Below, in pieces: positions 9,583 through 60,588 of a stretch of DNA of 64,000 nt. The DNA lies in the NCBI GenBank assembly GCA_964016885.1, contig OZ024742.1, positions 173,414,001 through 173,478,000 on the forward strand, given 5' to 3'. The position numbers were made by a program, and so were the translations under genes. This DNA is from Eledone cirrhosa. Lineage: Eukaryota. The stretch's first letter is position 1. Every line of letters starts with the position of its first letter. The notes beneath the pieces were generated by a model, which was given only the letters and a program-made list of their open reading frames with translations, did not search any database and had not been told where the DNA came from.

Positions 9583-9616
9583 GTTGAAATGGAGTGGAAA
9601 AGATTGGAAAGACCAC

Positions 9617-11402
9617 TTACCTTACTTCTGGTAGAGGAAGGATGGTTTCTCCATTCTTTTCACTGCTTGTCGCCTCCTCCGGAAGGATGTCCTTATAAAT
9701 CCTCCTGGAGAGTGCTTGTCGGAAGTCTCCGAAGTTTTGGGGAATTTTTGTTTCAGTGTCGTGTACGTTTTCTCTTTGATGCGAGTGATTTATATGAGTC
9801 GAGGTGGTGTGAACTTTTGAAGTGTTGTGTAGTATTTTTCTGTGATGCTGGTGTTGTGTTGGATGTAGTATAATAGTTGGTTGTTGTTCAAATGTAATGC
9901 TGTGTAGTGTGTATCGTTTTGGTTGTTTTATTTTGTTTGCATTTGTTGTGGGTTTGTTTCTGTTTCGCTTGTTGGTGACTTTTGTGGTGTTGGTGATTGT
10001 GGTGTTGGGGTCAATGATTGTGATTGTGTTGGTGTTTGTAGTGATGGGGTTGGTGATGCTGGTGTGGATGGTGACAATATGTCTCCAGTGCGATACGACC
10101 TATCGCAAAATCCTCCACAGGCGTTGGTTTTGGTTGTGGCGTGGTGGATCGTGTAGGCGCTGGTGCTAGTTCTGGCACGTTGGGTGGTTGTGGTGTTGGT
10201 TTTGATACTGTTGCTGGGGCTTGAGCTGCTACAGTTGCTTCTGCTGTTGCTGCTACAGTTGTTGCTGCTATTAATGCTGCTGGTGGTGTTGATGGTTGAG
10301 TCACTGGGGTGGGTAAGAGAGGTGGCCTCAACCTTTTAGTCTGAGGGCAGAAAGCCTTTAGGTGGGTTCCTTCACCACAAACGACACACCAAAGCCTTCT
10401 ACCCTCGACGATGACGGTGAGGTGGCTGCCGTCAGTGATGTCTATTACGTCTAGGATCTCCTCAATGCTATTTTTGTCCGCTTGGATCAGGAGCTCCATC
10501 CCAGATCCCGACCAGTTCTCCTGCTTTTCTCTTGCTATTTCGATTATTTTGGTGTTGGCGTCGATGCCGGCGAGGAGAGCAGCCATTAGCCAGGGAATTT
10601 CGATGGCCGGTGGAACGTGGGTCACCCTGATCTTTACGAGTCTCTCGCCACAATAGCTTGGGACGAGTGTGAAGTCGTCGCTTCTTAATGGAGCCATGGG
10701 GTGTTCTCTGGCTTCCTGTGGTGTTTCAAAGAACACGTCCACGGTTCCATATTTCTGCCCACGTCAGATGTGGATTTTCCTTGCACACACATGCCCCAAA
10801 ACGTTTTGGATTTGGGATTCGGATGCCCGTTCCACTCGACGCGATTTTATGTTAATCGTCCGATAAGACACGGTGCATAGCCGCCGATGCTCCATTTTAT
10901 TTGGTCGGGGAGGGGGGGGGGGGGGGGGGGGGGCTGACCCTGTACCCATCTTTCTTTACCATTCTCTTGGCTTCATCTAATTCCTCCTGAGTTTGTTTCG
11001 CATTGTTGGCTTCTTTGGCAAAAGCCACGGAGTTATTCTCATTGTTGTTGTTGCTGTTGTTGTTATTGTTATTCTTAGTTTCAGTTGTGGTGGTGATGGC
11101 GTCAGTTGTGTTCGGTGTGGAGGAGTCCGTTCTGGGTGAATATATTTCGATGTCACGAGATAATTTATTTGTTTTCTTTTGTTTCTGTTGTTGCTGTGGT
11201 GGTATTGGAGGTGGCAGTTTCAACACCTGCTATCATTGCTAATGGCGGGAAATGAATGTCTGCATGAGATAAATTTAAATATTGCTACTGCTTCTATTTT
11301 TAGTGTTAGCAGACGTAGTAATATTTACAATGGTGGTGTTGTTAGAGGTGTTAGTTTGTGAGGAAGGCTCTAAGTTGCTGTTGTAGCTGTGAGTCGTCCA
11401 TG
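9617..11402 (-). pseudogene. Tx1-C ORF1 type 1 (gag-like CCHC knuckle), disrupted
   Basis: Pieces 10897-11226, 10764-10949 and 10011-10742 are homologous to the 710-aa ORF1. C-terminus TILPLPEVR*. Start uncertain. Confidence 0.8.
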
Positions 11403-16693: not shown

Positions 16694-16923
16694 GTTATAT
16701 ACAAACAAGGTTTAAGAAGTGAAAAGAAAAAAAAAAAGGAAAAAAAAAGGAAAAAGAAAAGTGCATAATGTGGAACGTAAAAAGTCAATGTGGAAGAAAA
16801 GTTAATGTTATTTGACTGTGCTTGTAAATAACATTAACATTTCTTCCACATTGACTTTTTACGTTCCACATTATGCACGGTTTCTTTTTTCTTTTCACTT
16901 CTTAAACCTTGTTTGTATATAAC
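16694..16923. repeat. Long inverted repeat (about 100-bp arms, 12-nt loop)
   Basis: gttatatacaaacaaggtttaagaagtgaaaag...gtgcataatgtggaacgtaaaaagtcaatgtggaagaaa-gttaatgttattt pairs with its reverse complement at 16826-16923. Confidence 0.93.
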
Positions 16924-17129
16924 TAAATTAATTGTATATAACTAAATTAATTTTTCGTATTAGTTTTTCATATATATCGTACGAGCATTTATGTAGTTTG
17001 CATTATAATTTATGTATTGTAGCAGTACTCATATATATCGTATTAGTATTCATTTTCGGGATTCTGAATTAATATTTCGTATTAGTTTCGGGACTCTGAA
17101 TTATTATTTCGTATTATCTTTTTTTAGTG

Positions 17130-17731
17130 TTTTGGCCCCCTACTGGCTGACCTGTCATTGTAAGATAGATTTGGCCGATTACTACTAACTCATTAAATTC
17201 TTTCACTACAATCTCGTATTTAGTATTCCGTCCCACCTATTAAACTTGTCTATAGCTTAGCAGTACCCGTGAGAGATTTGATGTTTGTGGAAGGGGAATA
17301 GTAACAAGAAAATGTGTTTTTTTAAATATTTTTAATATTTTTTATATTTTCCTATATATTTATTCCATATAGATTTACTTATTGTGTCGACATCCTCCCC
17401 CCTCCCCTTCGCTAATATACATCTTTCGACCTCTTATCCTTAGATTGTGCTGTAGTTTTCACTTTCAACGCTCGACTAGGTTTCCTCCACTTCCTCTCCC
17501 TCTTGCTTCTACTGGCAACTTCAGCTACCCCTACCTTCCACAAAATGTCACGATAGAATCATGTGTCTCAACAACAAACTTTTGACCAATCCTTGTGACA
17601 ATCAATTTTACCATATATGGAATTACCCCCTGAGAAGTTCGGCTATTCATTTACCATGATAAAAAATGTTCTTTTAGTCCAGAATTAGCCGTCGAAACGG
17701 CTTCAGATCAGACGCCGGGGTCCTACTCGTT

Positions 17732-17733
<2 letters not shown>
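17130..17733 (+). mobile_element. Non-coding HHR-terminated element, related to 40590-41165
   Basis: Shared blocks taagatagaWttggccga..tactaact and acaac..tt..accaat..tgacaa...ccc(t)tgaRaagttcggctatt...tttagtccagaa.tag..gtcgaaacggct. Confidence 0.75.
17625..17721 (+). ncRNA. Hammerhead ribozyme-like motif, decayed, long helix II
   Basis: acccc-CTGAGAA-g..cggcta/tagccg..c-GAAA-cggc...ggggt. Cleavage triplet is mutated in this copy. Confidence 0.55.
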
Positions 17734-17768
<35 letters not shown>

Positions 17769-17771
<3 letters not shown>

Positions 17772-17832
17772 ACAGTTTGGATCTAGCTGTCGAAATGGCT
17801 GGAGCTCAGCCGTCGGGATCATGACTCCTTTC
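17769..17832 (+). ncRNA. 3' half of the same HHR family, embedded in (TA)n
   Basis: c-GAAA-tggctg-gagct-cagccg-TC-gggatc, giving an intact helix III and GUC triplet. Confidence 0.6.
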
Positions 17833-24268: not shown

Positions 24269-24303
24269 GTTTAAAATAGAGTGGAAAAGATGGGAAAGAC
24301 CAC

Positions 24304-26436
24304 TTACCGTACTTTTGGTAGAGGAGGGATGGTTTTTACATCCCTTTTCACTTGATCGTCTGGTGAAGGGACCGTTGAATCGTCCCTTCGGCTGGTCGTC
24401 GGCTCTTCTAAGAGAATGTCTGAGTATACTCTTTGGTTGATGGTTCCTCCTAGGTCCCTGAAATCACCAACTGCGTTGGGGAATTTCGTTTTAATGTTTG
24501 TGTATTGTTTCTGTGCTATTTTTAGCAGTCTTATGTTAGTTGGCGTTTTGATTGGTGCTGGTATTATGTAGTCCTGTTGTGAAATGTCTGTGTGTTCAAT
24601 TATGTAAGTCATTAGTTTCTTGTTGTGTGTATTTATTGCCGTGCATTTGTTTTTCTGGGGGTGGGGTGTGGTTCTGCTATTTTCTTGTCGTTGTTGCTGG
24701 GTGTGTGTGTTTTGTTGTTGTGTTTGCGATGTTGGTGCTTGTGGTGGTGGTGTTGAAGGTGTTGTTGGCGGTGGGGTTGTCGCCGGTGGTGATGGTGGTG
24801 CTAGTGTGGGTGGTGATGGTGTTGGTGTTGTTGCTGCTGTGGGTCTCTTTGCAGTAGACTTTACCCTTTTCTCATTTCTTTCCTCCCTTTTCAAAGGCGA
24901 CGATGCGCTGCTTCTGCGTTTGTGCCTTCTTACGACCTTTTGCCATCTCTCTCCCACCTCACACTCCATGTCTGATTCTGTGAGGTCGGGGAGGGGTACC
25001 AACTCCACTCTTTCACTTGTTGTTGTTGGTGATGTTTGCACTGGAGTCTCTGTTGCAGCTGCATTTGGTATTGCTGTTGTTGTTGTTAGTATTTCCACTG
25101 CTGCTGCTGTTTTTGATTTCCGTGGAGTGGGTATGGGTGCCACGGGCCTATCGTTCCTGGTTGCCGCTTGTCCTGTTGCTGGTAGCCGTGGAGCCGGATT
25201 CGGAAGGAGGGGGGTTTTCTCCTTTCTCAGGGTCTTCTCGTTGCAGAAGGCCCTGAGGTGAGTCTTCGATCCACAGCGAAAGCATTTCGGGCGTTTGCCC
25301 TCAACACTTATGGGCAGTTGAGTGCCGTTATCGAAGTCTATCACATCCGGGATAGCTTCGATGCACTCCTGGTTGGTTTGGATTAGCATCTCAATGGAGG
25401 AGCCGACCCAATCTTCTCTTACTTTTTTCTGTACTTGCAGTACAGTTGTTTTGTCCTCGATTCCGACGAGGACAGACGCGGCCAGCCAAGAAGGGGTCAT
25501 TCCGGGGGGGACGTGGGTCAGTTTGACCCTCACAATTTTTTGCCCACAGTAGGAGGGCACCAACACCATTTCCTCGCTCCTTAGGGTCACTACTGATTGG
25601 GCCTTTGCCTCCTGGGGTGTGGCAAAAAGTACGTCTACAGTGGCATATTTTTTGCCTCGGGTGACGTGCGTTTTCCGCTCCCACACAGACCCCAAGGCTT
25701 TTTGTATTTGGGCCTCTGTGGCTCTTTCCACCCTACGGGATTTTGTACTTACTGTACGGTACGTGACCGTACAGTGCTCTTGGGTTTCGAAAAAATGTTT
25801 CGCTGCCTTGCAGATTGCTCGGTGTCCGTTCTTTGTCACCATCTTCTTCGCTTCCTCTAATTCCTCATTTGTTATGAGGATTGTTTCCAAGTTTTTCGCA
25901 ATACCTGCAAATGAGATTGGTTTTTCTCTGCTGTTGTTGTTGCCGTCAGAGCTGCTGGTACTTTTGTTGTTGCTGCAGGTACTACGACTACTGCCTCCGC
26001 CGCTGTTGCTGTGGTTGTTGTTGGTGTTGCTGCTGCTAATGCTGTTGTTGTTTATGCTGCTGGTGATGCTGTTGCGGCTGCTACTGTTGTTTTCATTGTC
26101 ACTGTTGCTGTTGTTATTACGGCTGCTACTGCTATTATTCCTGACGTCAGACGAATGAACTGGGTTTTCGTATTTCCCGCACACCTCTTTCGTCGCTGTC
26201 GTCGTCGTCGTGGAGAAACCTTGCACGCTTTGCACGAGACTTTTCTTTTCTTTCGTCGCTTGCGAAAGAGAAGGGAGGGAGAGAGACACATTTAAAGAAG
26301 GGAGGGAGAGAGACAATCTTCTCTCTGCTGTAGTGATGATTGAGGAAGAAGAAGACGGAATGAGTGGGAGTGACGTATGAAATTTCTTTTTCGTAGCCAT
26401 GTTCTTTTTTTGTTTAAAATGAAATTTTGGGTACAA
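24304..26436 (-). CDS. Tx1 ORF1 nucleic-acid-binding protein (up to 710 aa)
   Basis: Long open frame with Ser/Asn-rich N-terminus, SFAGIAK motif, CFRCGSKTHLRAFC zinc knuckle and a Pro/Thr-rich linker. Likely start is MATKKK at 26400. Confidence 0.9.
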   Translation of the reverse strand: MYPKFHFKQKKNMATKKKFHTSLPLIPSSSSSIITTAERRLSLSLPSLNVSLSLPSLSQATKEKKSLVQSVQGFSTTTTTATKEVCGKYENPVHSSDVRNNSSSSRNNNSNSDNENNSSSRNSITSSINNNSISSSNTNNNHSNSGGGSSRSTCSNNKSTSSSDGNNNSREKPISFAGIAKNLETILITNEELEEAKKMVTKNGHRAICKAAKHFFETQEHCTVTYRTVSTKSRRVERATEAQIQKALGSVWERKTHVTRGKKYATVDVLFATPQEAKAQSVVTLRSEEMVLVPSYCGQKIVRVKLTHVPPGMTPSWLAASVLVGIEDKTTVLQVQKKVREDWVGSSIEMLIQTNQECIEAIPDVIDFDNGTQLPISVEGKRPKCFRCGSKTHLRAFCNEKTLRKEKTPLLPNPAPRLPATGQAATRNDRPVAPIPTPRKSKTAAAVEILTTTTAIPNAAATETPVQTSPTTTSERVELVPLPDLTESDMECEVGERWQKVVRRHKRRSSASSPLKREERNEKRVKSTAKRPTAATTPTPSPPTLAPPSPPATTPPPTTPSTPPPQAPTSQTQQQNTHTQQQRQENSRTTPHPQKNKCTAINTHNKKLMTYIIEHTDISQQDYIIPAPIKTPTNIRLLKIAQKQYTNIKTKFPNAVGDFRDLGGTINQRVYSDILLEEPTTSRRDDSTVPSPDDQVKRDVKTIPPLPKVR

Positions 26437-36529: not shown

Positions 36530-36549
36530 GTAATAATAATAATAATAAT

Positions 36550-36739: not shown

Positions 36740-39700
36740 AATAAAAATGAAAAATTCAAACAATGAAAAAATACTCCAATAGTGCGGAAACCTCCGAGGG
36801 TTACTCGTGGCGAAAACCACACAAAAGACCACGTCCACCCTGACTACCAGGACAAGCGCCCTCTCTCAATTATTCCATCCCTAAAACTACAAGCGTATAT
36901 TCAGAGCGGTGCCGTTCACTCGAACCATTCTCGCTACATTCACCCACCTTTCAACAGACTTGCTAGAAGACAGCACTTGCCTCTCCACCCTGATTTTCCT
37001 GTTCAATTGAAAGCTGAAAAAGTTAATCAGGGATTCGCCGAAGAGAAAGGTATCTGTTTTAACCCTTTCAACATTGTCCACCACACAATCTCTTTCGCCA
37101 TGGCCACCAGGCAGATGAAATCTTCCTGCCATTCCTCCTCTAAGGAAGACGGAGAGACCATCTGCACAATGGACTCAGTCGATAATCGGATCGGTCCTAC
37201 ACGCGACAGCAACTGTTCGACATAGCTCCACAAGTCAGCAATGCTCGGGCACTGAACGAGGGCATGCAGGACGGTTTCGTCACTCTGCGCGCATCTAGGA
37301 TCGTCTCGGCTGATAGCACTTCCTTGCCTGTAGAGCTTATCTCGAACCGGCTACGCTCCCCGGTAGCACTGCCAGGCCAGGGACTTCTAGGAGTTATCCA
37401 TAGGCCCTAGGCTGAAAGTACTCCGGAAGAGGGCAAACATCTGATCTTCTTCGACGCCCAGGATCTCTCCGAGAACGCCGTCGCTCTTCCCCTCCACGCC
37501 AAAGTGGATGTTCCACCGATACTGGTGCCCAGCTGGCAGAGGGTGGTGAGCGCCTGGAGACATTAGAGTTTCAAAGCCCTATCCCTCACTCTTTTCCTGA
37601 CCCAGGACTGCAGTTCCGCCAAGGAGACAAGCTGTGGGAAAACATGCCTGGAGAACGGCGACTACACCTGTTCACCGTCAAGGAAGCACCAGAGATGTCG
37701 CAGCCTCAGCGAGCATGTTTGCGCATCATCAGCCATGGCATGCCTACTCCCCTACGCAACGGGTGTTGACAACAGTTGGACCGTCTAACTATTGGACCGC
37801 GTCCTTTCCACAAAAAGCCGAAGAGGAGTCGCTCTATTTTGGTGAGAGTTGAGCCTGGGCAAGGGATGGCGGTGAGGCGTTAGCAGATAACGGATGCGAT
37901 GTACGCATTCACCCCTGCGCCCGGCCTTTCAGGGACAGCTTCCTTGCGGCCCATTTCTGGTTGAGGGAGGCAACCTTGCTCGTCACATCGCTCCAGTTTT
38001 TCTCCATTTGGCGGTGGGGGCCGAACCTGACCCCGAGCAATATACCGGTTTGTCCAACACCCTACGACGCTGTCGGAATACATGGACTTGCCTCTCCAGG
38101 TGCCGAGCCGTAAGCCCACCGCCTTTACCTGGTTTATATTTGCTCCTGTCACCGCTTCGTATTCCTTGAGAGCGGTGCCAAACATCTGGACGTGTCTGGT
38201 GCTCGATAGCATCACGGAGACGTCGTCGGCGTATGCCGACTCGGATTTCCCGCATCCTAGTTCGCATGGGACGCCCCTCATCGTCCCTAGTTTGTGCTCG
38301 AGAGCCAATACGTACAAGCAGAACGCGAGGCGACCACCCTGGTGGAACGAGCGCATGATGCTGAATGGCTGCGACAGGTGACCTTTCACCCTAACAACCA
38401 AGCAGATGTCGCTGTACGTCGCAGCGATCCAACCCCTGAAAACGGGCCCGAAAGCGGCTGCTTCGAGGTACCGATAATCGGCCGAGTGTCATGTACCGTT
38501 AGTCGACCCTTGGATTGATCCAAGTTTATCAGGTCCCCAGCCGTCCAGGTTCCTTAACCACCCTCTCTACGATGTATCGCATAAGGTGGAGGTTGTCATG
38601 TATGGATCTGTCCGGAATGGCGCATATCTGCGCCTCTCCCACATGATCCTCGACGACAAGCGCCAACCTCATTTTAACACCTTGGCCAAAATCTTGAACT
38701 CTGCGTTTAGCAGAGTTATGGGCCTGAAGGTATCGATAACATCCCGCTTGATCGGGTCTTTTCTCAGCAGCGCTATCGCTCCCCGACTGACGAAACTGGG
38801 AATGCTCCCGTTCTGCTGCCAGTTGCATTAGACGTCTGCCAAGAAGTCACCTACCAAGTCTGGCATAAATGCATAAAGCTCGTAGGTCAGACCATCCAAA
38901 CCTGGCGATTTACTCCTCCTGCAGTATGTCATCGATTCCGGTATTTCACCGGCTGTTATTGGCTTTTCGCAACACTGTGCAGCGGTCGTAGAGAGCCGAG
39001 GCAGTCCGGTGAGGTATGCACTAAAATTCATACCCCTATCCGGCCTGCTGCTCCTCCCAAACAGTTCAGCAAAGTGCTGCTGAAAAGCCTCACACATCTG
39101 CTCTGGTTTGAGCAACTCGCGCCCGTTTTGATTAGTCAAAGACTGAATTGTGGCTTTGTTGCCATGTCGCGCAACTGCCACTCGGGCCTAGTGGACGGCT
39201 TTTGTCCCCTCGTGTTTCAGAGCACGCGTTCTAGCTCTGACAACGCAGCCTTCGTGTTATGCGTTGGCCGAGTGCCAATCTCGCCGCAAGCACGTCGGTT
39301 GCGATGCCTGTTTTTAAACGCCTCTTCTAGCTTTCTGACTAGCTCTCCATCTACTGTATTTTCCTCTATCTCTAGTCCTTTGCTAAACCTAATCGATTCT
39401 ACTTTAATTGCCCTTTTAATTGCCCTTTTCTACTTTAATTGCCCTCAACGTCCGCTTACCTAATACACTAATGCGGTCTCTGTAGGCTTTGCGCGCCGGG
39501 AAAGACGCGTTCAGCTTCCAGTAACCGGGTTCTTGTCTGTGAAGTCTGTCTACGTTGATCTGTGTAGTCGACTATTTTAAATTGTGGACAACTTATACTA
39601 GCCTTGGCTAGTTCTCTGCAGAATACCCTATCGAGATACGATCTGTCCATGTCCACATTGGTACATTCGGGTGATCCAGTCGATAACTGTCAGACAGTTC

Positions 39701-40204
39701 AAAACGTCTGAGCAGGCTGGTAAGGCTTTTGCACCCTCCTCCCCTATCCACAATCCCATCGTGCATCCAAGATACCGTTCTAGTCGCCCACTAACTCTAA
39801 AGAGCGGGACGTTCCAAGAAAGGTCTCGAGATGTCTAAAGAAATCTGGCCGTCCTGCCCCAGGTGAGCCGTAGACGTCTACTAGCCTGAAAGCATTGCCT
39901 TCGCTGCTGGTCACGTCCAGCACCCCCGACTTACATTCTGGGTTCAGGAAGATGGCCGGTATGGCGAGATTGAAGCCTCTCCGAAAAAGGACGGCAAAGC
40001 CTCCCCCGATCCTGGACGGCTGGGAGATGCGGTTACGTCATAGCCGCCGAAGATCGGTGCGAAGGTTCGTGCTTCGGAGATTCTGGTCACGTTGATGTCC
40101 ACCACATCTATGTTTAGTTACCTGAGGTCGTTGAACATGTGACCCTGCATCCAAGATGACCTCAGGCCACGTACGTTTATACTGCCTATTCTAAGTACGG
40201 CCAT
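36550..40204 (-). mobile_element. Tx1/L1-clade family E, entire ORF2 span, decayed, no ORF1
   Basis: Begins at ATG GCC GTA CTT AGA ATA GGC (MAVLRIG, equivalent to MTSLRIG). KSPGLDG and YADD present. Own 3'UTR ending in (TTA)n on the minus strand. Confidence 0.9.
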
Positions 40205-40512
40205 GGTGGATGGGAAACGGGGCTAGGATGAGACATGGGGAAGAAGACAAAGAGGAAAAGAAAAGAAAAGAGATACATCTACCTAAGTAATCTGTGGTTT
40301 CCCCTAACTTATTCGGCAAGTAGGGGGGTATCAGCCCTTGTCTACCCACCCGGGTTATTATGGGCTTTGAGGGCGAGGTAAGTCCTAGAAAATCTGTGAT
40401 ACCCCCCTACTTGCCGAATAAGTTAGGAGAAACCCAACTTACTTAGGTATCTCTTTTCTTTTCCTCTTTGTCTTAATCTTCCCCCTGTCTTATTCTATCA
40501 CTTCCTTCCACC
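40205..40512. repeat. Long inverted repeat (about 120-bp arms, about 63-nt loop)
   Basis: ctaacttattcggcaagtaggggggtatca / tgatacccccctacttgccgaataagttag is perfect near the loop. Distal arms (aagacaaagaggaaaagaaaag / cttttcttttcctctttgtctt) are less perfect. Confidence 0.93.
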
Positions 40513-40589
40513 CCTATTTTCTTCCTTGTCTGCCTTTCCCCTTCGCCTACCCGATGCAGCCCATCGGGCCTCTGTAGCATCAGTTCCAC

Positions 40590-41165
40590 CACCCTTGTAA
40601 TTTTAAGATAGAATTGGCCGAAGACGTTTTACTAACTATTTATAGCAGACGTGTTAAACCCCTTTAATTCTGTATCAGTTCTGGTACTACTCATTTTCTA
40701 CAAGTTGTTTTCTATTCTCAACAAATTAACCTGTAATTGTAAGATAGCATTGTGATTTTTTTTATTAATATCTCACTATCTAATTTTATATATCTTTTTA
40801 TTTATTTCTATTATCTTTTATTGTCTTCTACTCTCATTTGATCAATCTATTCTATAACCTCCCTCCTCCACTTCTTACACTATCCTTAGAATCTGCTGTA
40901 TACATATCACTTTCAACGTTTGACCACTCCACTCACTCCACTATCGTTCTACAGGCAAGTTCAGCCACCCCACCTCCCACCAAATGCCATGATAGACTTA
41001 TTTGTGTTTACAACAACTTTTAACCAATCTTCTTGACAACTACACTCTTCCCATATAAGAAAGTACCCCCTTGAAAAGTTCGGCTATTTTTCACCATTCT
41101 AATTTAGTCCAGAAATAGTGGTCGAAACGGCTTGAGCTCTGCCATCGGGGTCATACATTTTCCTA
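40590..41165 (+). mobile_element. Non-coding HHR-terminated element, related to 17130-17733
   Basis: Shared 5' block and shared 3' about 150 nt. Confidence 0.75.
41065..41151 (+). ncRNA. Hammerhead ribozyme-like motif, U3-A8 core
   Basis: accccc-TTGAAAA-gttcggctattt...aaatagtggtc-GAAA-cggc-ttgagctct-gcca-TC-ggggt. Confidence 0.62.
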
Positions 41166-41507
41166 TTTCCCACTCTACTACCCTAAGTATTGAGTACTCT
41201 GGTGCGTTATGGTCCATCTGGTTCCTTACACAATTCCTTTGATATATATATTATTATTATTATTATTATTAGGACAATAGGATTGATGATTTAACATCTG
41301 TATACAACAACTAAAACGGTACGCGATGGGGACCACCCACAGCCCCGGCGGAAAGAATGAAGAAGGCGTTTCCCCGGGGACGGCAAGGGAGACGCGCTGG
41401 AAAAACATTCTTAGTAATAACCCCATGCTTGACCGGCAATCGCTCTGTATAATCAGTTCCTGATTATTACTAAGAATTCTATAAGAATCAAACATTCATG
41501 ATTTTTC

Positions 41508-41589
41508 AGCAGACAGGAGGAGTAGTTAGCTTTGATAAGCATAAAAAAATGCGAAACAGAGCTCTGTCAGCTTTATCTCCCCTGTTTGC
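41508..41589 (+). ncRNA. Type I hammerhead ribozyme, U3-A8 core, extended helix I
   Basis: gcagacaggagg..agct-TTGATAA-gcat(aaaaaa)atgc-GAAA-cagagctctg-TC-agct..ctcccctgtttgc. Confidence 0.85.
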
Positions 41590-42009: not shown

Positions 42010-42789
42010 ATTTATTAATGCATGGACAGTTATATGACCTCCTTTTCAGCCGAGAGACATACCAATACATATTCAAACATTGATACATATTCAAACATTG
42101 TGGGTCAACATTCATTACAAAATTTAGAGTGGCAGTACACACTTCGAGATTACATTTATATTAATAGGTACAATCAAAAATCAAAGATATAGGTTAAAGT
42201 ACAACATGAAGATAAGTGGTTATATAGTGCAAATGTTATATGTGTGGCACGCATGTGCGTCTTGTTTATATAGTGTGGCAGAGAGATATGTGTGGTAGAG
42301 GCACTTAGGTAGGTAAATAAGAGTGTTAGGTTGGTAGATCTGGTGGCAAAGTCTTTATATGATTGATGTAGTCTGTGTGTGGAGAAATATTATAAGCATT
42401 AAAGATAGTGCAAGCATTAAAAGTGTTATAAGTATTGGAGATGCACAACGCAGGGATGTCAAGTAATTCATGTACTTCGGCATTTTCATGGTCAAGGGAG
42501 TGTATATTTCGATTATATGCCTTTCGATTATATGCCTTTCACATAATGTTTTGAACAGTTCTTTGATTCTTATATTTCATATAACTGCTCTGTAAATCAT
42601 CTGATGTTTTTACATTGAGCTACTTAACTTACTGGTAATAAGGTAGTAATACATTACTGCCTACCACTATTTAGGGTGTGTGTAAAATACTTACAACTGC
42701 TTAAGGTTTTGTGTTTACATAACCATAAATAGTATAACTAATACTATTAACTGCTCCATATCGTTGAGCTGACATATAATATTGCCAAT

Positions 42790-45249
42790 ATGCTAATCAA
42801 AGACCAACTCCCCATGTCAACCAAGAACATACCAATACCATCCAGGAATACATATGAGAAATTGCTGATCAACAGTGTAAATTCATTTATCAATAGAGTG
42901 AGATGGAGGACATTCCATTATGATAGAAACAAATCTAACAACTTGAATAATACTAACAAGTTTGACTCCTTCGGCTTTAAAACCTTTAAAAGCCCCCCTC
43001 ATAACACTCTACTTAACTCCTTTGAAAATGACCTAGTTAAACTAGTTAAGAACATTAAATACAATAAGCACCATATTAGAAGCAACACCTTCTTAAACAA
43101 ACTTAACACTTCTATTAGTGGATTCAAAACTAGTAATAACATTATTGTACACGCAGATAAAACTAATAACATATACAGCCTAGATTATATTACTTATAGA
43201 AAGTTTATATATAATGAACTACATAAAAGCTACAAAAAAACCACCTTGAAAAACTTAGAAGATATTAATGTAGAGGGTTATAATATAGTGTCTAAACTAG
43301 GACTACAGAGGCATACACAACCTTTCACTCCGAACCCCCCTAGATTCTCTCTGAAGGACCATAAGGAGAACTTCATCAGCAACCCCACGATAAGACTTAT
43401 CTGCCCTTCCAAGTCCGACATTGGTATTATCAGCAAGAAGATTTTGGATAAAATCATCCCACAAATTAAACACAAGATACACCTTAAACAATGGGGAAAT
43501 ACGGGTGAAGTAATTGAATGGTTTAAGGATATCAAGAATAATAAGAACAAAAAATTTATTCAATTTGATATCAATTCATACTACACCTCTATTTCCCCTA
43601 TCCTATTAAATAAGGCACTTATCATGGCCATGACTAATAGCGACCTGACTAGAGCCCAGGTTGATGTCATCCTTGCGGCCCGTAAAACCATAATCACCTT
43701 CGAGGACCAACTATGGACACGCAAGGATACGCACAACAACTTCGACATAACCATGGGATCTAGTGACTCGGCGCAGGTCACTGATTTGGTCGGCCTATAC
43801 CTCCTCAATGAAATCCATAAGGACCTCCCTTACCTCAACGGTGGTTTGTACCGCGATGATGCACTTCTACTCATAGAATATAAAAAATTTAATATAGAAA
43901 GAACTAGAAAACAACTGCATAAGACATTCAAAAACTTTAACCTTAGTATCACCATGGACAAAAACACTAAAAATGTTAACTTCCTAGACGCCACACTATA
44001 CCTAGACTCAAAAATATATACACCTTTCCATAAGCCTAATGAGAAACTTATTTACGTAGATACCAAGTCTAATCACCCTAGATCAATATTAAACTCTATC
44101 TCTAAGGGGGTGTCCAATAGAATCTCTAGTCTGTCCTATGACGCAAACATATTTAGCAAAAACTCACAATATTACAATCAAGCATTAGCTAGCTCCGGCC
44201 ATAATATAGAAATAGAGTTCCTACCTAAGAAAACACATAGCTACAACATCATCTCGCACAACATGTCCATGAGGAAATCTAATAATAGGAATAGCAACCA
44301 CAAGTACACCAAAGCGGAGGGTGCCACCAGAAGTAACCATTACCATGGAAACTACTGTGAGGCCTTAGGAGGAAGCAACACACCAAACACTAAAAGCAAA
44401 AATAGAAGAAGAAATAATACATTTTTCAACCCTCCTTTCAACCTAAATGTCTCCACCAACATACCTAGGGCTTTCTTCTCACTACTAGATAAAAACTTCC
44501 CTCTAGGACACAAGTACCACAACCTCTTAAACAAAAACACCATTAAAATCTCATACTCTACGACGCCTAACTTAGCATACCACATAGCTAGCAGCAATAA
44601 TAGTAAAATTAGTTCTTACTTCCAACAAACAAAATCACAACGGGATGCAAACCCTCTAAATACCACTGTAGCAAGCAACAATAGCAACGGCAGTAACAAT
44701 AGAAATAACACTAGTATAAGTAATAACACCAGGGTTGTCAACCTGAACACCCAAAATCCTATATCCACCACACAGACTTCCGCATTGCATTATAACCAGC
44801 GGACTAACGCACAGAATAATTGTAACTGTAGAGCTAATAGAACCTGCCATTTAGATAAAAAATGCCTAACCAAGGATGTCATATACTCATGCACAGTCAC
44901 GACTAATAACTCTTCAGAAACCTATGTAGGCTCCACTTCTAACTGCTTCAAAATTAGATATAACTCGCACATCCACTCGTTCAAAAAGCACAGCCTAGCC
45001 AACTCCACCTCACTTTCTAGCTACATACACTATCTAAAATCTAAAAATAAACCATACACACTCAAATGGGAAGTGATAGGCAGCGCGACCTCGTACAAAC
45101 CACCTAATAAATTCTGTAACCTCTGTATACTAGAGACACACAATATTATCTTCTCCAACCGTAACCTACTTAACAAAAAATCTGAGGTGTTTGCAACTTG
45201 CCAGCACCGCCTCAGACATTCCTTCCAAAACTTTAAGCCCTATATATAG
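42790..45249 (+). CDS. Penelope-like RT + C-terminal GIY-YIG endonuclease (819 aa), Naiad-like
   Basis: ADKT, RLICPSKSDIG, QFDINSYY, TMGS, YRDD, NFLD, HKP..SNHP, FNPPF, CNCR...CLTKDVIY...YVGST..FKIRY..H, CNLC..E. Confidence 0.93.
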   Translation: MLIKDQLPMSTKNIPIPSRNTYEKLLINSVNSFINRVRWRTFHYDRNKSNNLNNTNKFDSFGFKTFKSPPHNTLLNSFENDLVKLVKNIKYNKHHIRSNTFLNKLNTSISGFKTSNNIIVHADKTNNIYSLDYITYRKFIYNELHKSYKKTTLKNLEDINVEGYNIVSKLGLQRHTQPFTPNPPRFSLKDHKENFISNPTIRLICPSKSDIGIISKKILDKIIPQIKHKIHLKQWGNTGEVIEWFKDIKNNKNKKFIQFDINSYYTSISPILLNKALIMAMTNSDLTRAQVDVILAARKTIITFEDQLWTRKDTHNNFDITMGSSDSAQVTDLVGLYLLNEIHKDLPYLNGGLYRDDALLLIEYKKFNIERTRKQLHKTFKNFNLSITMDKNTKNVNFLDATLYLDSKIYTPFHKPNEKLIYVDTKSNHPRSILNSISKGVSNRISSLSYDANIFSKNSQYYNQALASSGHNIEIEFLPKKTHSYNIISHNMSMRKSNNRNSNHKYTKAEGATRSNHYHGNYCEALGGSNTPNTKSKNRRRNNTFFNPPFNLNVSTNIPRAFFSLLDKNFPLGHKYHNLLNKNTIKISYSTTPNLAYHIASSNNSKISSYFQQTKSQRDANPLNTTVASNNSNGSNNRNNTSISNNTRVVNLNTQNPISTTQTSALHYNQRTNAQNNCNCRANRTCHLDKKCLTKDVIYSCTVTTNNSSETYVGSTSNCFKIRYNSHIHSFKKHSLANSTSLSSYIHYLKSKNKPYTLKWEVIGSATSYKPPNKFCNLCILETHNIIFSNRNLLNKKSEVFATCQHRLRHSFQNFKPYI

Positions 45250-52647: not shown

Positions 52648-53705
52648 TAAATAATCAAAAGTGTTGCTTACATTGCTCGGAAAGAGTTTTTGGGGTTAAA
52701 TCCACGTCAAGGTTCATTGCTCGCAAAAATAGCTTGTTTTGATTGTGCAGTAGGTCAAGGGAGGTAACTATGGCCGGTGTTAGGGCAGTCTTTCCCGGAC
52801 AAATTTGTTTTAACTGCTACGAGATGAGGTTGCAACCTTACCATTGTCGATACGCATGTAATCAACCCTTATTTTGAGAGTTTTTTTTGCCGCATCTGTT
52901 TGTCTGAGTCGTTTGAGGCTGGGTCTGGTATGTTTCCTGGGTGTTATTTTGCAGCGCCTGCCCACCGGGGTGTTAAGACTTGTTGAAGGGAGATCCGGTG
53001 CACGGTTTCACTCCTCATTCTTAACCCATCTGAAGAAGGATATTTTTAAGCGATGTGTAAAACTTATCGCTGTTTCAGCTCTGCTGTTGATGAGCTCTGG
53101 GGGTGCAGTTATGATGTGGTAGAGCTCCATGAGGCAAAGATTGCATTTCCTCTTGAAGTTCTACGGTGCAGCCCTGCCGACAATCTCCCAGTGCGTGGAG
53201 AAGCTGACGTTTAAGACCTTTAGTGATGTGATGTAGTCCGCGAGCGAAGTGGAGTGCCTTAGTTTTCTATTTTTGAAAGAGTGGAGATGTGTTCGAAAAC
53301 TAATTTTGAACGGGCCGGAGGTAGCCCCTATATAATGTTTAACGCTATTGTGGCTAGTAATAGTGCATCTATATATAACCCTATCAGTGAAGCAGTATCC
53401 TCTAAGGGGGCAGCGTCCTCTGTCGCGGCAGTTGCAATTTCTGTCGCGGTTCCGTCTATTTCCCACGGTAAGGCTATCATTGTTGCTGCCTACGTTGTTA
53501 CCTACGCTACCGCAGCTGTTTTTAGTACCATTACAACCCACAGCACGCGGGGTGGTGCGATTATTATGCCGCACGTCATGTCCTGCATGTTCCCCGGTCA
53601 TTTCGCGGTTATGCTGGTTGCGTCTGCGGATGCAATGAACCTTGACGTGGATTTAACCCCAAACACACATTGCGAGCAATGTAAGGAACACTTTTGATTA
53701 CTTAT

Positions 53706-53745
53706 GCCCTTGAGAAGCCCAACTGGGCGAAATGTACGTACGTGC
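53706..53745 (+). ncRNA. Minimal HHR, U3-A8 core (5' pLTR)
   Basis: gccc-TTGAGAA-gccca/tgggc-GAAA-tgtacg-TA-cgtgc. Confidence 0.72.
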
Positions 53746-56700
53746 TGTTTTAAATAAACATGTTCTAACGGTCTATTCTCCAATTTCTTACTTCTCCCAC
53801 GTGCTTACGCTCTGCTAACTCTCTAGCCCACTAAATATTAACACTTCGAATATTTAATACTGCCGGCACTAGTATCGAGCACCTTCGGCATACGCTACTT
53901 GGCAAATAACTATATGTATCACCTATCCTCCCCTTTTTATTTTTCTCTCTCTCGATACGTAAATACTGTATTACTGTGCTCCTTTTGTAGAGCATCTCAC
54001 CTTATTTGCCATTATGTTGGAGAACCAGCCGTTACCCATGTCTCTCAAGTGTATCCCCTTACCCAGCAGAAAAACCTACCTTAAACTGCTTATAAACGCT
54101 ACTAATTCGTTTATACGGAGAGTCAGATGGAAGGCCTACCACCTGGATAAGAACACCCGTAACCTTCCTGAACCCAAAGAGAGGTATGGCTTCAAAACAT
54201 ACTGAAACCCACCGCACGAGACCTTAGTGGACTCCTTTGAAGAGGACCTGCTGAAAATGATCAGACACGTTAGGTTCAGAAAGAAACACCAACGCAGCAA
54301 TCCATTCTTAACGTCCCTTGATACACTAATAACTAAGATCAAGAATGAACCGCACTTCTCCGTCACCTCCGACAAAACCAAAAAGCTGTACAAGATGGAC
54401 GCGAGTAAGTATAACAAATTCATCTATAAGAAACTACACAAATACTACAAAAAGACACCCTCTAGTACCCTAAATGACATAAATAGAGTAGGGAAGGATA
54501 TAGTCACCAGCTTAGAAATAGAAAAGTAAACTAACCCGTACGTTCCCCTGACGCCTAAATTCTCTCTTAAGGATTACAAATATGACTTTAATGAAAGCCC
54601 CTCTATTAGACTAATATGCCCCTCTACATCAGATATAGGTAAGATTAGTAAAGTGATCCTCGACAGAGTACTACTGGAGCTTAATAGAAAGGCTAAGGTC
54701 TACCTGTGGGGCAACACCGACCAGGTCATAAATTGGTTCACCGAGTTGCCGGATAAAGCCACCCTGAAGTTCATCCAGTTTGATATAGATAGTTACTACG
54801 CCTCTATCTCCCCCAAACTCTTAAATAAGGCACTTATCTTAGCTAAATCTAACACTAGGCTCACTAAAAAGAAATAGACATAATTCTAGCGGCAGGTAGA
54901 ACCATTATCCAGTTCGAAGGCTCCCACTGGACCAGAACGAACCGTCCTGATAACTTCGATGTCACGATGGGGTCCAGTGACTCAGCGCAAGCAACTGACC
55001 TGGTCGGACATACTTCCTACATAAGCTTAGGCAAGAGATACCGGCCCTACCAGGAGGTGTATATAGGGACGACGCCCTGTTTACCGTTAGCAACCATAAC
55101 CCCCTTAGGATAGAGAACCTTAAAAAACATATACACAGGTTCTTCAAGTCATACGGCCTATCCGTAACTATGGACCTCAACCACAGGGTGGTCAACTTCC
55201 TGGGCGTGACCCTGGAGTTGAGTAAGGGCTTATACACGCCATACGGTAAGCCTGGAGAGTGCCTCTCTTATATTAATTATGCCTCCAACCACCCTAAGCA
55301 GACTCTCAAATCCATAGTCTATAGTATCTCACATAGAATCGCTAGGCTATCCGCCAATGAGGATATATTCAACCAAGCGGCAGCGTGTTATAATAGGGCC
55401 TTGATAAACGCCGGCTTTAACGGAGGAATTTCCTACATCCCTAACGCTAGCTCTAGAAACCACTCCCCTCATAAAATGACGTTATAGTAAGCCATACCTA
55501 TAACCGATCACGCGGCGACCTCGTTGAAGTCGGATATAATAGAATAGATAACCGCACTAAAGATCACGACCCCGGCGACGGTGACCACTGCAGATTACTC
55601 GAACTATTCCCCTATTACAAAACCAACAAAGGCGACGGCCTACTACCAACGCCTTCCAACCAACATAATTCCTGTACATAAACATGGAAGACGTAGGAAG
55701 AGTGCAACCGAGCATAAAGTGAAAGGGGCACCGAACGGGCGACTGCGCATTAACACACATAAGAACGGTCACCTAGATGGAACCACCCGTAGAAAAAGTA
55801 CAAGGAAACGTAATCGCCACCGTAACGTCCTATGGTTCCACCCCCCCTACTCTCGGAGTGTGGTCTCCAACATACCCCGGATGTTCTTCGAAGCCTTAGA
55901 GAAGAAGATCCCGCCCAACCATAGGTATAGAAAAATTCTTAATAGGAACAATATAAACATATCATTCTCTACTACTCCTAACCTAGCAGACATCATAGGA
56001 ACAACGAACCACAGTAACATCACCAAGACACAGCACCTCGACACAGAGGCACCTACACCTGATAATAACTATATCGGCCTAAACAACTCCCTGGCAGCAT
56101 CCAATAGTGTTGGCAAAGGCATCCGCAGACGCAACCAGCATATCCGCTAAATGACTGGGGAACATGCAGGACATGACGTGCGGAATAACAATCGCACCAC
56201 CCCGCGTGCTGTGGGTTGTAATGGTGCTAACGACAACTGCGGTAGCGTAGGTATCAACGTAGGTAGCAACAATGATAGCCTTACCGTGGGAAATAGACGG
56301 AACCGCGACAGAAATTGCAACTGCCGCGACAGAGGACGCTGCCCCCTTAGAGGATACTGCTTCACTGATAGGGTTATATATAGATGCACTATTACTAGCC
56401 ACAATAGCGTTAAATATTATATAGAAGTTACCTCCGGCCCATTAAAAATTAGGTTTCGAACACATCTCCACTCTTTCACTAATAGAAAACTAAGACACTC
56501 CACTTCGCGCGCGGACTACCTCACATCACTAAAGGACTTAAACATCAGCTTCTCCACGCACTGGGAGATTGTCGGCAGGGCTGCACCGTAGAACTTCAAG
56601 AGGAAATGTGATCTTTGCCTCATGGAGTTCTACTACATCATAACTGCACCTTACGAACTCATCAACAGCAGAGCTGAAACAGCGATAAGTTGAACACATC

Positions 56701-57115
56701 GCTTAAAATTGTCCTTCTTCAGATAGGGTAAGGATGAGGACTGAAACCGTGCACCGGATCTCCCTGCAACAAATCTTAACACCCCGGAGGGCAGGCGCTG
56801 CAAAATAACACCCAGGAAACAATCCTTGCATACCAGACCCAGCCTCAAACGACTCAGATAAACAGATGCGGCAAAAAAAAACTCTCAAAATAAGCGTTGA
56901 TTACATGCGTATCGACAATGGTAAGGTTGTAAGCTCCTCTCGTAGCAGATTAAAAAAAGTTCTCCGGGAAAGACTGCCCTAACACCGGCCAGAGTTACCT
57001 CCCTTGAACTGCTGCAAAATCAAAACAAGCTATTTTTGCGAGCAATGAACATTGACGTGGATTTAACCCCAAACACTCTTTTCGAGCTATGTAAGGAACA
57101 CTTGTGATTATTTAT

Positions 57116-60131: not shown

Positions 60132-60245
60132 AACATGTGTGCACATACATATATATATATATATATAGATGTGTATAGTGGTAGCTATGGTGTTTCCATA
60201 GGCGGTTTGCCAAAATTAGCATTCGATATTCAGTGTAGAGTGTAG

Positions 60246-60489
60246 ATATTATAAAGAAAACGAAAAATCAGTGATGCATCTGGACTTAGTTTATTGGTGT
60301 TATGTCCGGAGCAAATTGTATCACTGGGTGATACAATTTGCTCCGGACATAACAGCCGTGTCTGAAAGAACCCGCAGAAGTAGAATCAGCCAGATCCATA
60401 CAAGGACCATGACTCGAGCTACATGCCGCCGAAACATTTGTAACAAGAAATAAACTAAGTCCAGATGCATCACTGATTTTTCGTTTTCT

Positions 60490-60498
<9 letters not shown>
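60246..60498 (+). mobile_element. About 250-bp element with about 50-bp terminal inverted repeats, internal 27-bp perfect hairpin and HHR-like motif
   Basis: TIRs 60246-60295 / 60449-60498. Hairpin 60298-60354. tgt-CTGAAAGA...c-GAAA-catttg-TA-aca at 60359-60445. Confidence 0.8.

Positions 60499-60588
<90 letters not shown>

Follow-up and report, generated by a model that had tools for sequence, protein, structure and literature searches.

We interpret the locus immediately upstream of ORF2 in a Tx1-type retroelement of Eledone cirrhosa as a one-off junction (probability about 0.7), at which a dead Tx1-type copy meets a 5'-inverted Penelope-type hammerhead repeat. The locus is probably an ordinary scar of nested retroelements and not a new element design. 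A hybrid of Tx1 with a Penelope derivative had been one of the options in the first-pass annotation, and the locus does join a Tx1-type copy to a Penelope-like derivative. The decayed Tx1-type copy (copy E) likely retains a normal ORF1 stop and spacer. Along the locus, the flank is followed by an antisense internal piece, the junction and a sense piece, and then by the hammerhead and (TA)n. All positions below are those of the window, that is, the whole stretch of 64,000 nucleotides that was analysed.

The window is a retroelement nest within microsatellites. Between 3 and 40 kb, six minus-strand L1/Tx1-type copies and plus-strand RT elements follow one another in alternation, and every one of them lies at (AAT)n. 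The Tx1-type copies are A (5.9-11.6 kb), C (18.1-20.5 kb), B (20.6-26.6 kb), D (27.8-30.0 kb), F (30.0-31.2 kb) and E, the copy under study (36.5-40.2 kb). The "Tx1" label, taken from the first-pass annotation and from general knowledge, is a putative clade placement; the matches listed included no named Tx1 reference. Within the 64-kb window, (AAT)n was found at the 3' end of all six copies and at the 5' end of five; copy E is the sole Tx1-type 5' end without AAT, as had been noticed, and the other five of five have (AAT)n there. From 3000 to 37000, at least two retroelement types (minus-strand Tx1-type and plus-strand RT) form a chain, all in (AAT)n, in which each is the target of the next one.

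Long local inverted repeats were common in the window (at least 12 among those listed). One region (60243-60501) holds a fold-back palindrome (60298-60354) inside an inverted copy pair that ends in (TA)n, and this fold-back is likely another Penelope-type inversion. An intact ORF of 832 aa on the plus strand (42751-45249) carries a C-terminal GIY-YIG match below the Pfam cut-off (E 0.018). Presumably it belongs to a Penelope-like element (PLE). It is flanked by near-perfect inverted repeats (41756-41960/42543-42747 and 41920-42525/46177-46782) and has a decayed relative at 53035-56717. Further, a second minimal U3-A8 type I hammerhead, with a palindromic helix III region and a GTC triplet, was found in an unrelated repeat at 41528-41572 (plus strand); its Rfam HH9 match was weak and below gathering (E 0.35).

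The 3' end of copy E lies at an (AAT)6 target run (36532-36549, plus strand), its ORF2 occupies 36890-40204 on the minus strand, and its 3' UTR continues to about 36550. Copy E aligned to sibling B across the whole ORF2 with 79.6% identity, and the APE endonuclease, RT and zf-RVT domains of its ORF2 were assigned by homology to sibling B, from Pfam matches of pieces of B. Relative to B, ORF2 of copy E has 27 indels (20 of them frame-breaking) and 15 new stops; ORF2 of sibling A has 12 frame-breaking indels and 6 new stops. Judged by these lesions, ORF2 of copy E is dead and heavily decayed. Its ATG (40204-40202, minus strand) aligns in register with the start codons of sibling A (9582) and sibling B (24268).

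The best solved-structure match of the Tx1-type ORF2 was human L1 ORF2p (PDB). Among the 120 proteins listed, the only close relative with a name for the RT of sibling B was a hypothetical protein of Argonauta hians (74%), which matched copy E with 67% over 64 aa. A search with the N-terminus of copy E gave no longer homologue, and the N-terminus of sibling B matched seven related proteins, none of which showed upstream sequence. A pattern scan of viral contigs detected no Tx1 relative, and a single weak match of 34 aa in prokaryote genomes was rejected.

ORF1 is present in the full-length siblings A and B, whose ORF1 products match at 50% over 183 aa. It is missing from copy E, as the first-pass annotation had it: tblastn with the sibling ORF1s detected no remnant outside 9.6-10.9 and 24.3-26.5 kb.

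The left arm of a hairpin had been placed at the base adjoining the ORF2 ATG. This placement did not hold, and the firm start of the arm lies near 40224, not at 40205. The stretch 40205-40223 resembled the right arm no better than shuffles did (p = 0.40), and it has a 9-mer in common with the spacer of B (p = 0.003; for sibling A, p = 0.095), in a post hoc comparison with 5,000 shuffles for each test. The 9-mer lies 6 nt from the ORF1 stop in B and 5 nt from the TAG in copy E that had been taken for an acceptor-like site, and the spacers of A, B and E are all pyrimidine-rich on the sense strand (0.74-0.83). Because the spacer of copy E resembles the ORF1 stop plus spacer of its siblings, this TAG, the pyrimidines nearest the ATG and the Kozak-like context probably all belong to Tx1 itself, and the TAG at 40225-40223 is likely, by the same resemblance, the old ORF1 stop of copy E. 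We therefore regard 40205-40225 (minus strand) as the probable native ORF1/ORF2 spacer, consisting of the TAG, a pyrimidine run and CCACC ahead of the ATG. The pyrimidine tract, TAG and Kozak context that had been reported on the minus strand are present, but they had been ascribed to the arm, from which probably only the long tract upstream of the TAG is derived. The Kozak-like context CCACCATGG (40201-40209) occurs once in the window; its G at +4 belongs to an Ala codon, and three of the seven related proteins begin with MA. A metagenome scan with the 19-nt spacer pattern yielded 47 loci, and the 20 listed BLAST matches to the window were all 30 nt or shorter and were dismissed as chance. 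The ORF1 stops of A and B sit within a 5' splice-site-like GGTAAGT on the sense strand (9615-9622 and 24302-24309, minus strand).

The hairpin of about 300 nt is real. It spans 308 nt, from 40205 to about 40512-40515, with a predicted energy of -181.4 kcal/mol (z = -15.2), and none of 100 shuffles reached this stability. Its arms (40224-40333 and 40397-40497) are identical at 92 of 98 aligned bases and differ by 6 substitutions and 4 indels. An Rfam match to MIR408 over the hairpin (E 0.038; 20.8 versus 64 bits) was rejected as that of a generic long hairpin. The sequence of the hairpin belongs to the hammerhead element, as had been proposed: two contigs (records 6 and 21) run from the right arm into the body of the repeat. 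An inverted internal piece of the hammerhead repeat (175 nt; 40224-40398, minus strand), comprising the left arm and the loop (40334-40398), meets the sense piece (40397-41241) head-to-head, and the two have two bases (TG, 40397-40398) in common. The loop is the upstream part of the hammerhead repeat in reverse orientation.

When reads and contigs were mapped to the window, the loop, the left arm and the right arm were all multi-copy. The mapping covered 39700-41235 at 80% likeness and used three sets of contigs, all from one sample, together with a reduced-representation read set (X5), making four runs from at most two samples. The resulting tables list 40 variants out of 360, along with 15 of the 98 joints, 24 of the 2,350 loose ends and 24 of the 58,619 pieces; the small word shares of X4 were left out. 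In X5, in which read counts stand for few loci, 1,832 reads (agreement 0.99) left the window behind 40398 into other letters, at a loop depth of about 2,550 at 40365. Therefore, the loop mostly occurs without the right arm next to it, and since most loop reads do not enter the right arm, the hairpin is a copy-specific inversion. Other copies had inversion joints elsewhere (40325/40946 and 41106/41175, each with a single start), and loose ends ahead of 41099 looked, on visual inspection, like the hammerhead in reverse complement. The joints 40240/40551, 40264/40513 and 40327/40409 were left out of this count, as they may only represent reads that swap arms.

The sense piece (40397-41241, plus strand) is a 5'-truncated copy of the multi-copy hammerhead repeat and comprises the right arm, the body, the hammerhead, a 3' tail and a (TA)n end. 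A U3-A8 hammerhead beyond the hairpin had been reported and was confirmed (core 41071-41077, GAAA at 41124), although the element ends at about 41241 and not at 41165. This type I motif (41065-41151, plus strand) has a U3-A8 core, a short helix I, a long helix II and a near-palindromic loop 3. The call rests on our own descriptor scan, stem assignment and conservation, with criteria as described in PMC4209133, in which PLE repeats are characterized by U3-A8 minimal hammerheads with a short helix I, a long helix II and a palindromic loop 3, and U3-A8 hammerheads are described as mostly single motifs of truncated PLEs. Rfam left the hammerhead at 41065-41151 unscored, with no match at gathering and only weak ones at E ≤10. 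The cleavage triplet is ATC in the window copy versus GTC in the loose-end consensuses, and helix III of the window copy contains a C-A mismatch; its self-cleavage is predicted to be weak or dead.

Copies of the repeat end in (TA)n behind 41166 or near 41241, with (TA)n loose ends behind 41166 and 41229. Summed contig depth increased about a hundredfold along the repeat: it was 3-54 thousand between 40220 and 40800 and reached 1.4-3.3 million near the 3' end, at 41104-41235. Loose ends at 41104-41241 (plus strand) point to a SINE-like sub-family that consists of a hammerhead remnant, the tail and (TA)n. The right flank (41242-41271, plus strand) is (AT)n followed by (TTA)n and does not continue the Tx1 copy.

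A diverged relative of the repeat (73.6%) was found at 17435-17736, in which the hammerhead is conserved. Its region (16694-17830, plus strand) has an upstream hairpin of its own (16694-16923) that differs in sequence and adjoins no Tx1 ATG. Homology between the arms of the two hairpins was rejected, as only a short low-complexity match was detected (score 26, p about 0.01). The core of this relative has lost one base, and a second 3' hammerhead fragment lies at 17782-17822. A candidate PLE remnant of 46 aa from the relative had no match in our searches. Further, the intact PLE-like ORF of the window had no tblastn match in either copy of the hammerhead repeat; as the 40 kb copy is 5'-truncated, an ORF of the repeat may lie beyond it. 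No second direct copy, such as in a direct tandem of pLTRs, was found next to 40397-41241. The lack of a tandem is common in truncated copies and lowers only the claim of a complete PLE. The hammerhead repeat behaves like a pLTR derivative of a PLE and may be one, although our searches found no coding remnant that links it to a PLE. A pattern scan of viral contigs with the hairpin arm and the 3' tail of the repeat gave no matches. Among the papers listed in our literature search, none described cephalopod hammerhead repeats, and these families may already be present in the supplementary repeat libraries of PMC13282606 and PMC8557442.

At 40213, each contig run had 35-37 contigs (summed depth 5.5-7.7 thousand), all of which ended within 11-14 letters. 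This reach was the lowest of the 40 places listed; the other 39 reached 25-127 letters. Up to 30 X5 reads also covered 40213. Sequence present in multiple copies thus covers the spacer and breaks off near 40227 or 40199, and the loose ends listed (24 of 2,350) include none from 40205-40227. These contigs suggest Tx1 copies that keep the spacer and leave the window sequence at about 40227. Contig records 11 and 20 match 40041-40209 and then continue into sequence unlike the hairpin (162-951 nt by coordinate reading). They show 25 changes in 169 nt relative to the window, and siblings A and B show 23-27 in 164; records 11 and 20 need not belong to family E, because their distance from E equals that of the two siblings. 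We consider it fairly likely that the left end of the hammerhead repeat met the Tx1 copy at about 40223-40227; a join at 40205-40209 through CCACC is a clearly less likely alternative.

The one-off junction could have arisen as follows. Reverse transcription of the hammerhead repeat would have been primed at the (TA)n run and halted at 40397. Some 110 nt downstream of this stop of the first strand, priming would have occurred a second time and copied the overlapping stretch in the other direction, either by annealing of the other DNA end over about 4 nt or by self-priming. The two products would have been joined over the two shared bases, in the geometry of twin priming and of the inverted pLTRs of Penelope. 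ORF1, the 5' UTR and the AAT flank of copy E may have been lost at the junction event or by later deletion. Several observations count against this reading. No family-E copy with ORF1 was directly observed, and no coding remnant links the repeat to a PLE. The probability that a junction falls by chance within a 23-35 nt spacer of an element of 5.7-6.1 kb is about 0.004-0.006 per junction. Contig depth was similar at 40213 and at 40255 (6.8-8.9 thousand), which counts against it because a bridging family could also give similar depth. Further, an overlap of 110 nt is longer than is usual for L1 twin priming. Precedents have been described: head-to-head palindromes at inverted junctions of Penelope are ascribed to self-priming in PMC3846280, which also describes a Penelope copy that sits in a non-LTR element, has microhomology at its 5' junction and lacks a target site duplication (TSD); inverted 5'-truncated copies and (TA)n targets are described in PMC8557442, and the twin-priming geometry is described for L1 in PMC2912911.

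The next most probable explanation, which we consider unlikely, is a chimera that arose when a single Tx1 copy inserted. After priming at (AAT)n, the RT of Tx1 would have copied as far as the ORF1 stop and then switched template, or joined by microhomology, to hammerhead repeat RNA or to a pre-existing inverted DNA copy. The Tx1 sense agrees with the orientation of the left piece, the 3' end lies properly in (AAT)n with the 5' AAT missing, and PMC2912911 and PMC2881922 describe target deletions as well as microhomology where the 5' end of L1 joins its target. However, the right piece and the head-to-head junction would need a separate origin, and one inverted insertion covers both. The locus would in this case still be a one-off.

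More doubtful is an ORF1-less Tx1 subfamily whose 5' end is the inverted Penelope-derived arm, with a long hairpin and, 18 nt ahead of the ORF2 ATG, a 3' splice site, and which has spread as a unit. As one option, the first-pass annotation had similarly proposed an ORF1-less lineage in which the leader is structured or spliced. In favour of it, no more than about 21 nt separate the junction from the ATG, a strong pyrimidine tract and a TAG precede ORF2 on the sense strand, the inverted piece and ORF2 have the same sense, and the similar depths at 40213 and 40255 would be expected of such a subfamily. A donor-like AGGTAAGT is present in the loop on the plus strand (40376-40383), as had been noted. 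This motif is not rare (5 matches in 64 kb), and at 40376-40383 it is antisense to the hammerhead strand of the repeat and to ORF2. With the donor on the plus strand and the acceptor-like site and ORF2 on the minus strand, no single intron is possible. Had the copy been made from a spliced RNA, neither the tract nor the AG would be left, and both are kept here; spliced L1 copies (SpIREs) are described as dead ends in PMC5860796. In addition, the contigs over 40213 stop within 11-14 letters, none of the 24 pieces listed (of 58,619) spans the junction, the right arm is absent from most loop reads, and both full-length siblings have ORF1, with ORF2 of copy E dead. The copy-specific hairpin, the ordinary spacer motifs, the opposite strands of donor and acceptor and the decayed ORF2 thus argue against the leader lineage. 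In our preferred reading, no function is predicted for the hairpin, the acceptor-like site or the Kozak-like context, which are all by-products.

An assembly artefact that joined Tx1 to the arm at a palindrome in the repeat nest is the least probable explanation: none of the pieces listed extends 31 letters beyond 40205-40227 on each side and the best run holds only 0.24 of the words, but record 5 (2 differences, 1 gap) crosses the inversion junction at 40398, the arms differ by substitutions and indels unlike a fresh copy error, and the window's own letter at 40213 has a residual depth of 13-14 in X1 and X2 (0 in X3), which is about single-contig depth in runs that may be the assembly's own sample.

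As read here, the locus has little significance beyond nested decayed retroelements with a Penelope-type inversion. The hammerhead-bearing, (TA)n-ended family has a very abundant 3' end and 5' inversions that vary, and is therefore well suited to a quantitative survey of how inverted junctions of the Penelope type arise. If the composite had spread as a unit, it would be an L1-clade element that moves with no ORF1 of its own and with a leader borrowed from another class of retroelement, a finding that specialists would not expect.

Among known systems, the pLTRs of PLEs as described in PMC4209133, PMC3846280 and PMC8557442 share with the window repeat the U3-A8 core, the short helix I, the long helix II and the palindromic loop 3. 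The head-to-head inverted 5' piece at variable positions, the strong 5' truncation and the (TA)n 3' end are also shared, according to PMC3846280 and PMC8557442, and insertion into a non-LTR element without a TSD has its precedent in PMC3846280. In contrast to PLE pLTRs, no RT or GIY-YIG sequence was detected in the 845-nt piece in the window, and its inverted piece is an internal segment and not a 3'-complete pLTR. The Tx1-type copies resemble Tx1-group L1 elements in their APE-RT-zinc finger ORF2, in siblings with ORF1 and a short spacer, and in the insertion of six copies in one simple repeat, (AAT)n; unlike these, copy E has neither ORF1 nor a 5' AAT flank.

L1 twin priming, as described in PMC2912911, gives the same order of flank, antisense internal piece, microhomology junction and sense piece to the 3' end. 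However, the inverted element here is a hammerhead repeat, and the overlap of about 110 nt makes a hairpin. The SpIREs described in PMC5860796 are likewise L1-type copies without the normal 5' part, whereas at this locus the tract and AG are kept, the donor lies on the opposite strand and the sequence upstream is of foreign origin. The metazoan non-LTR retrozymes described in PMC7229834 are, like the window repeat, non-coding high-copy repeats with a type I hammerhead. Unlike these retrozymes, the window repeat is not a tandem array of 150-450 bp units, is longer than 845 nt and has a non-canonical core.
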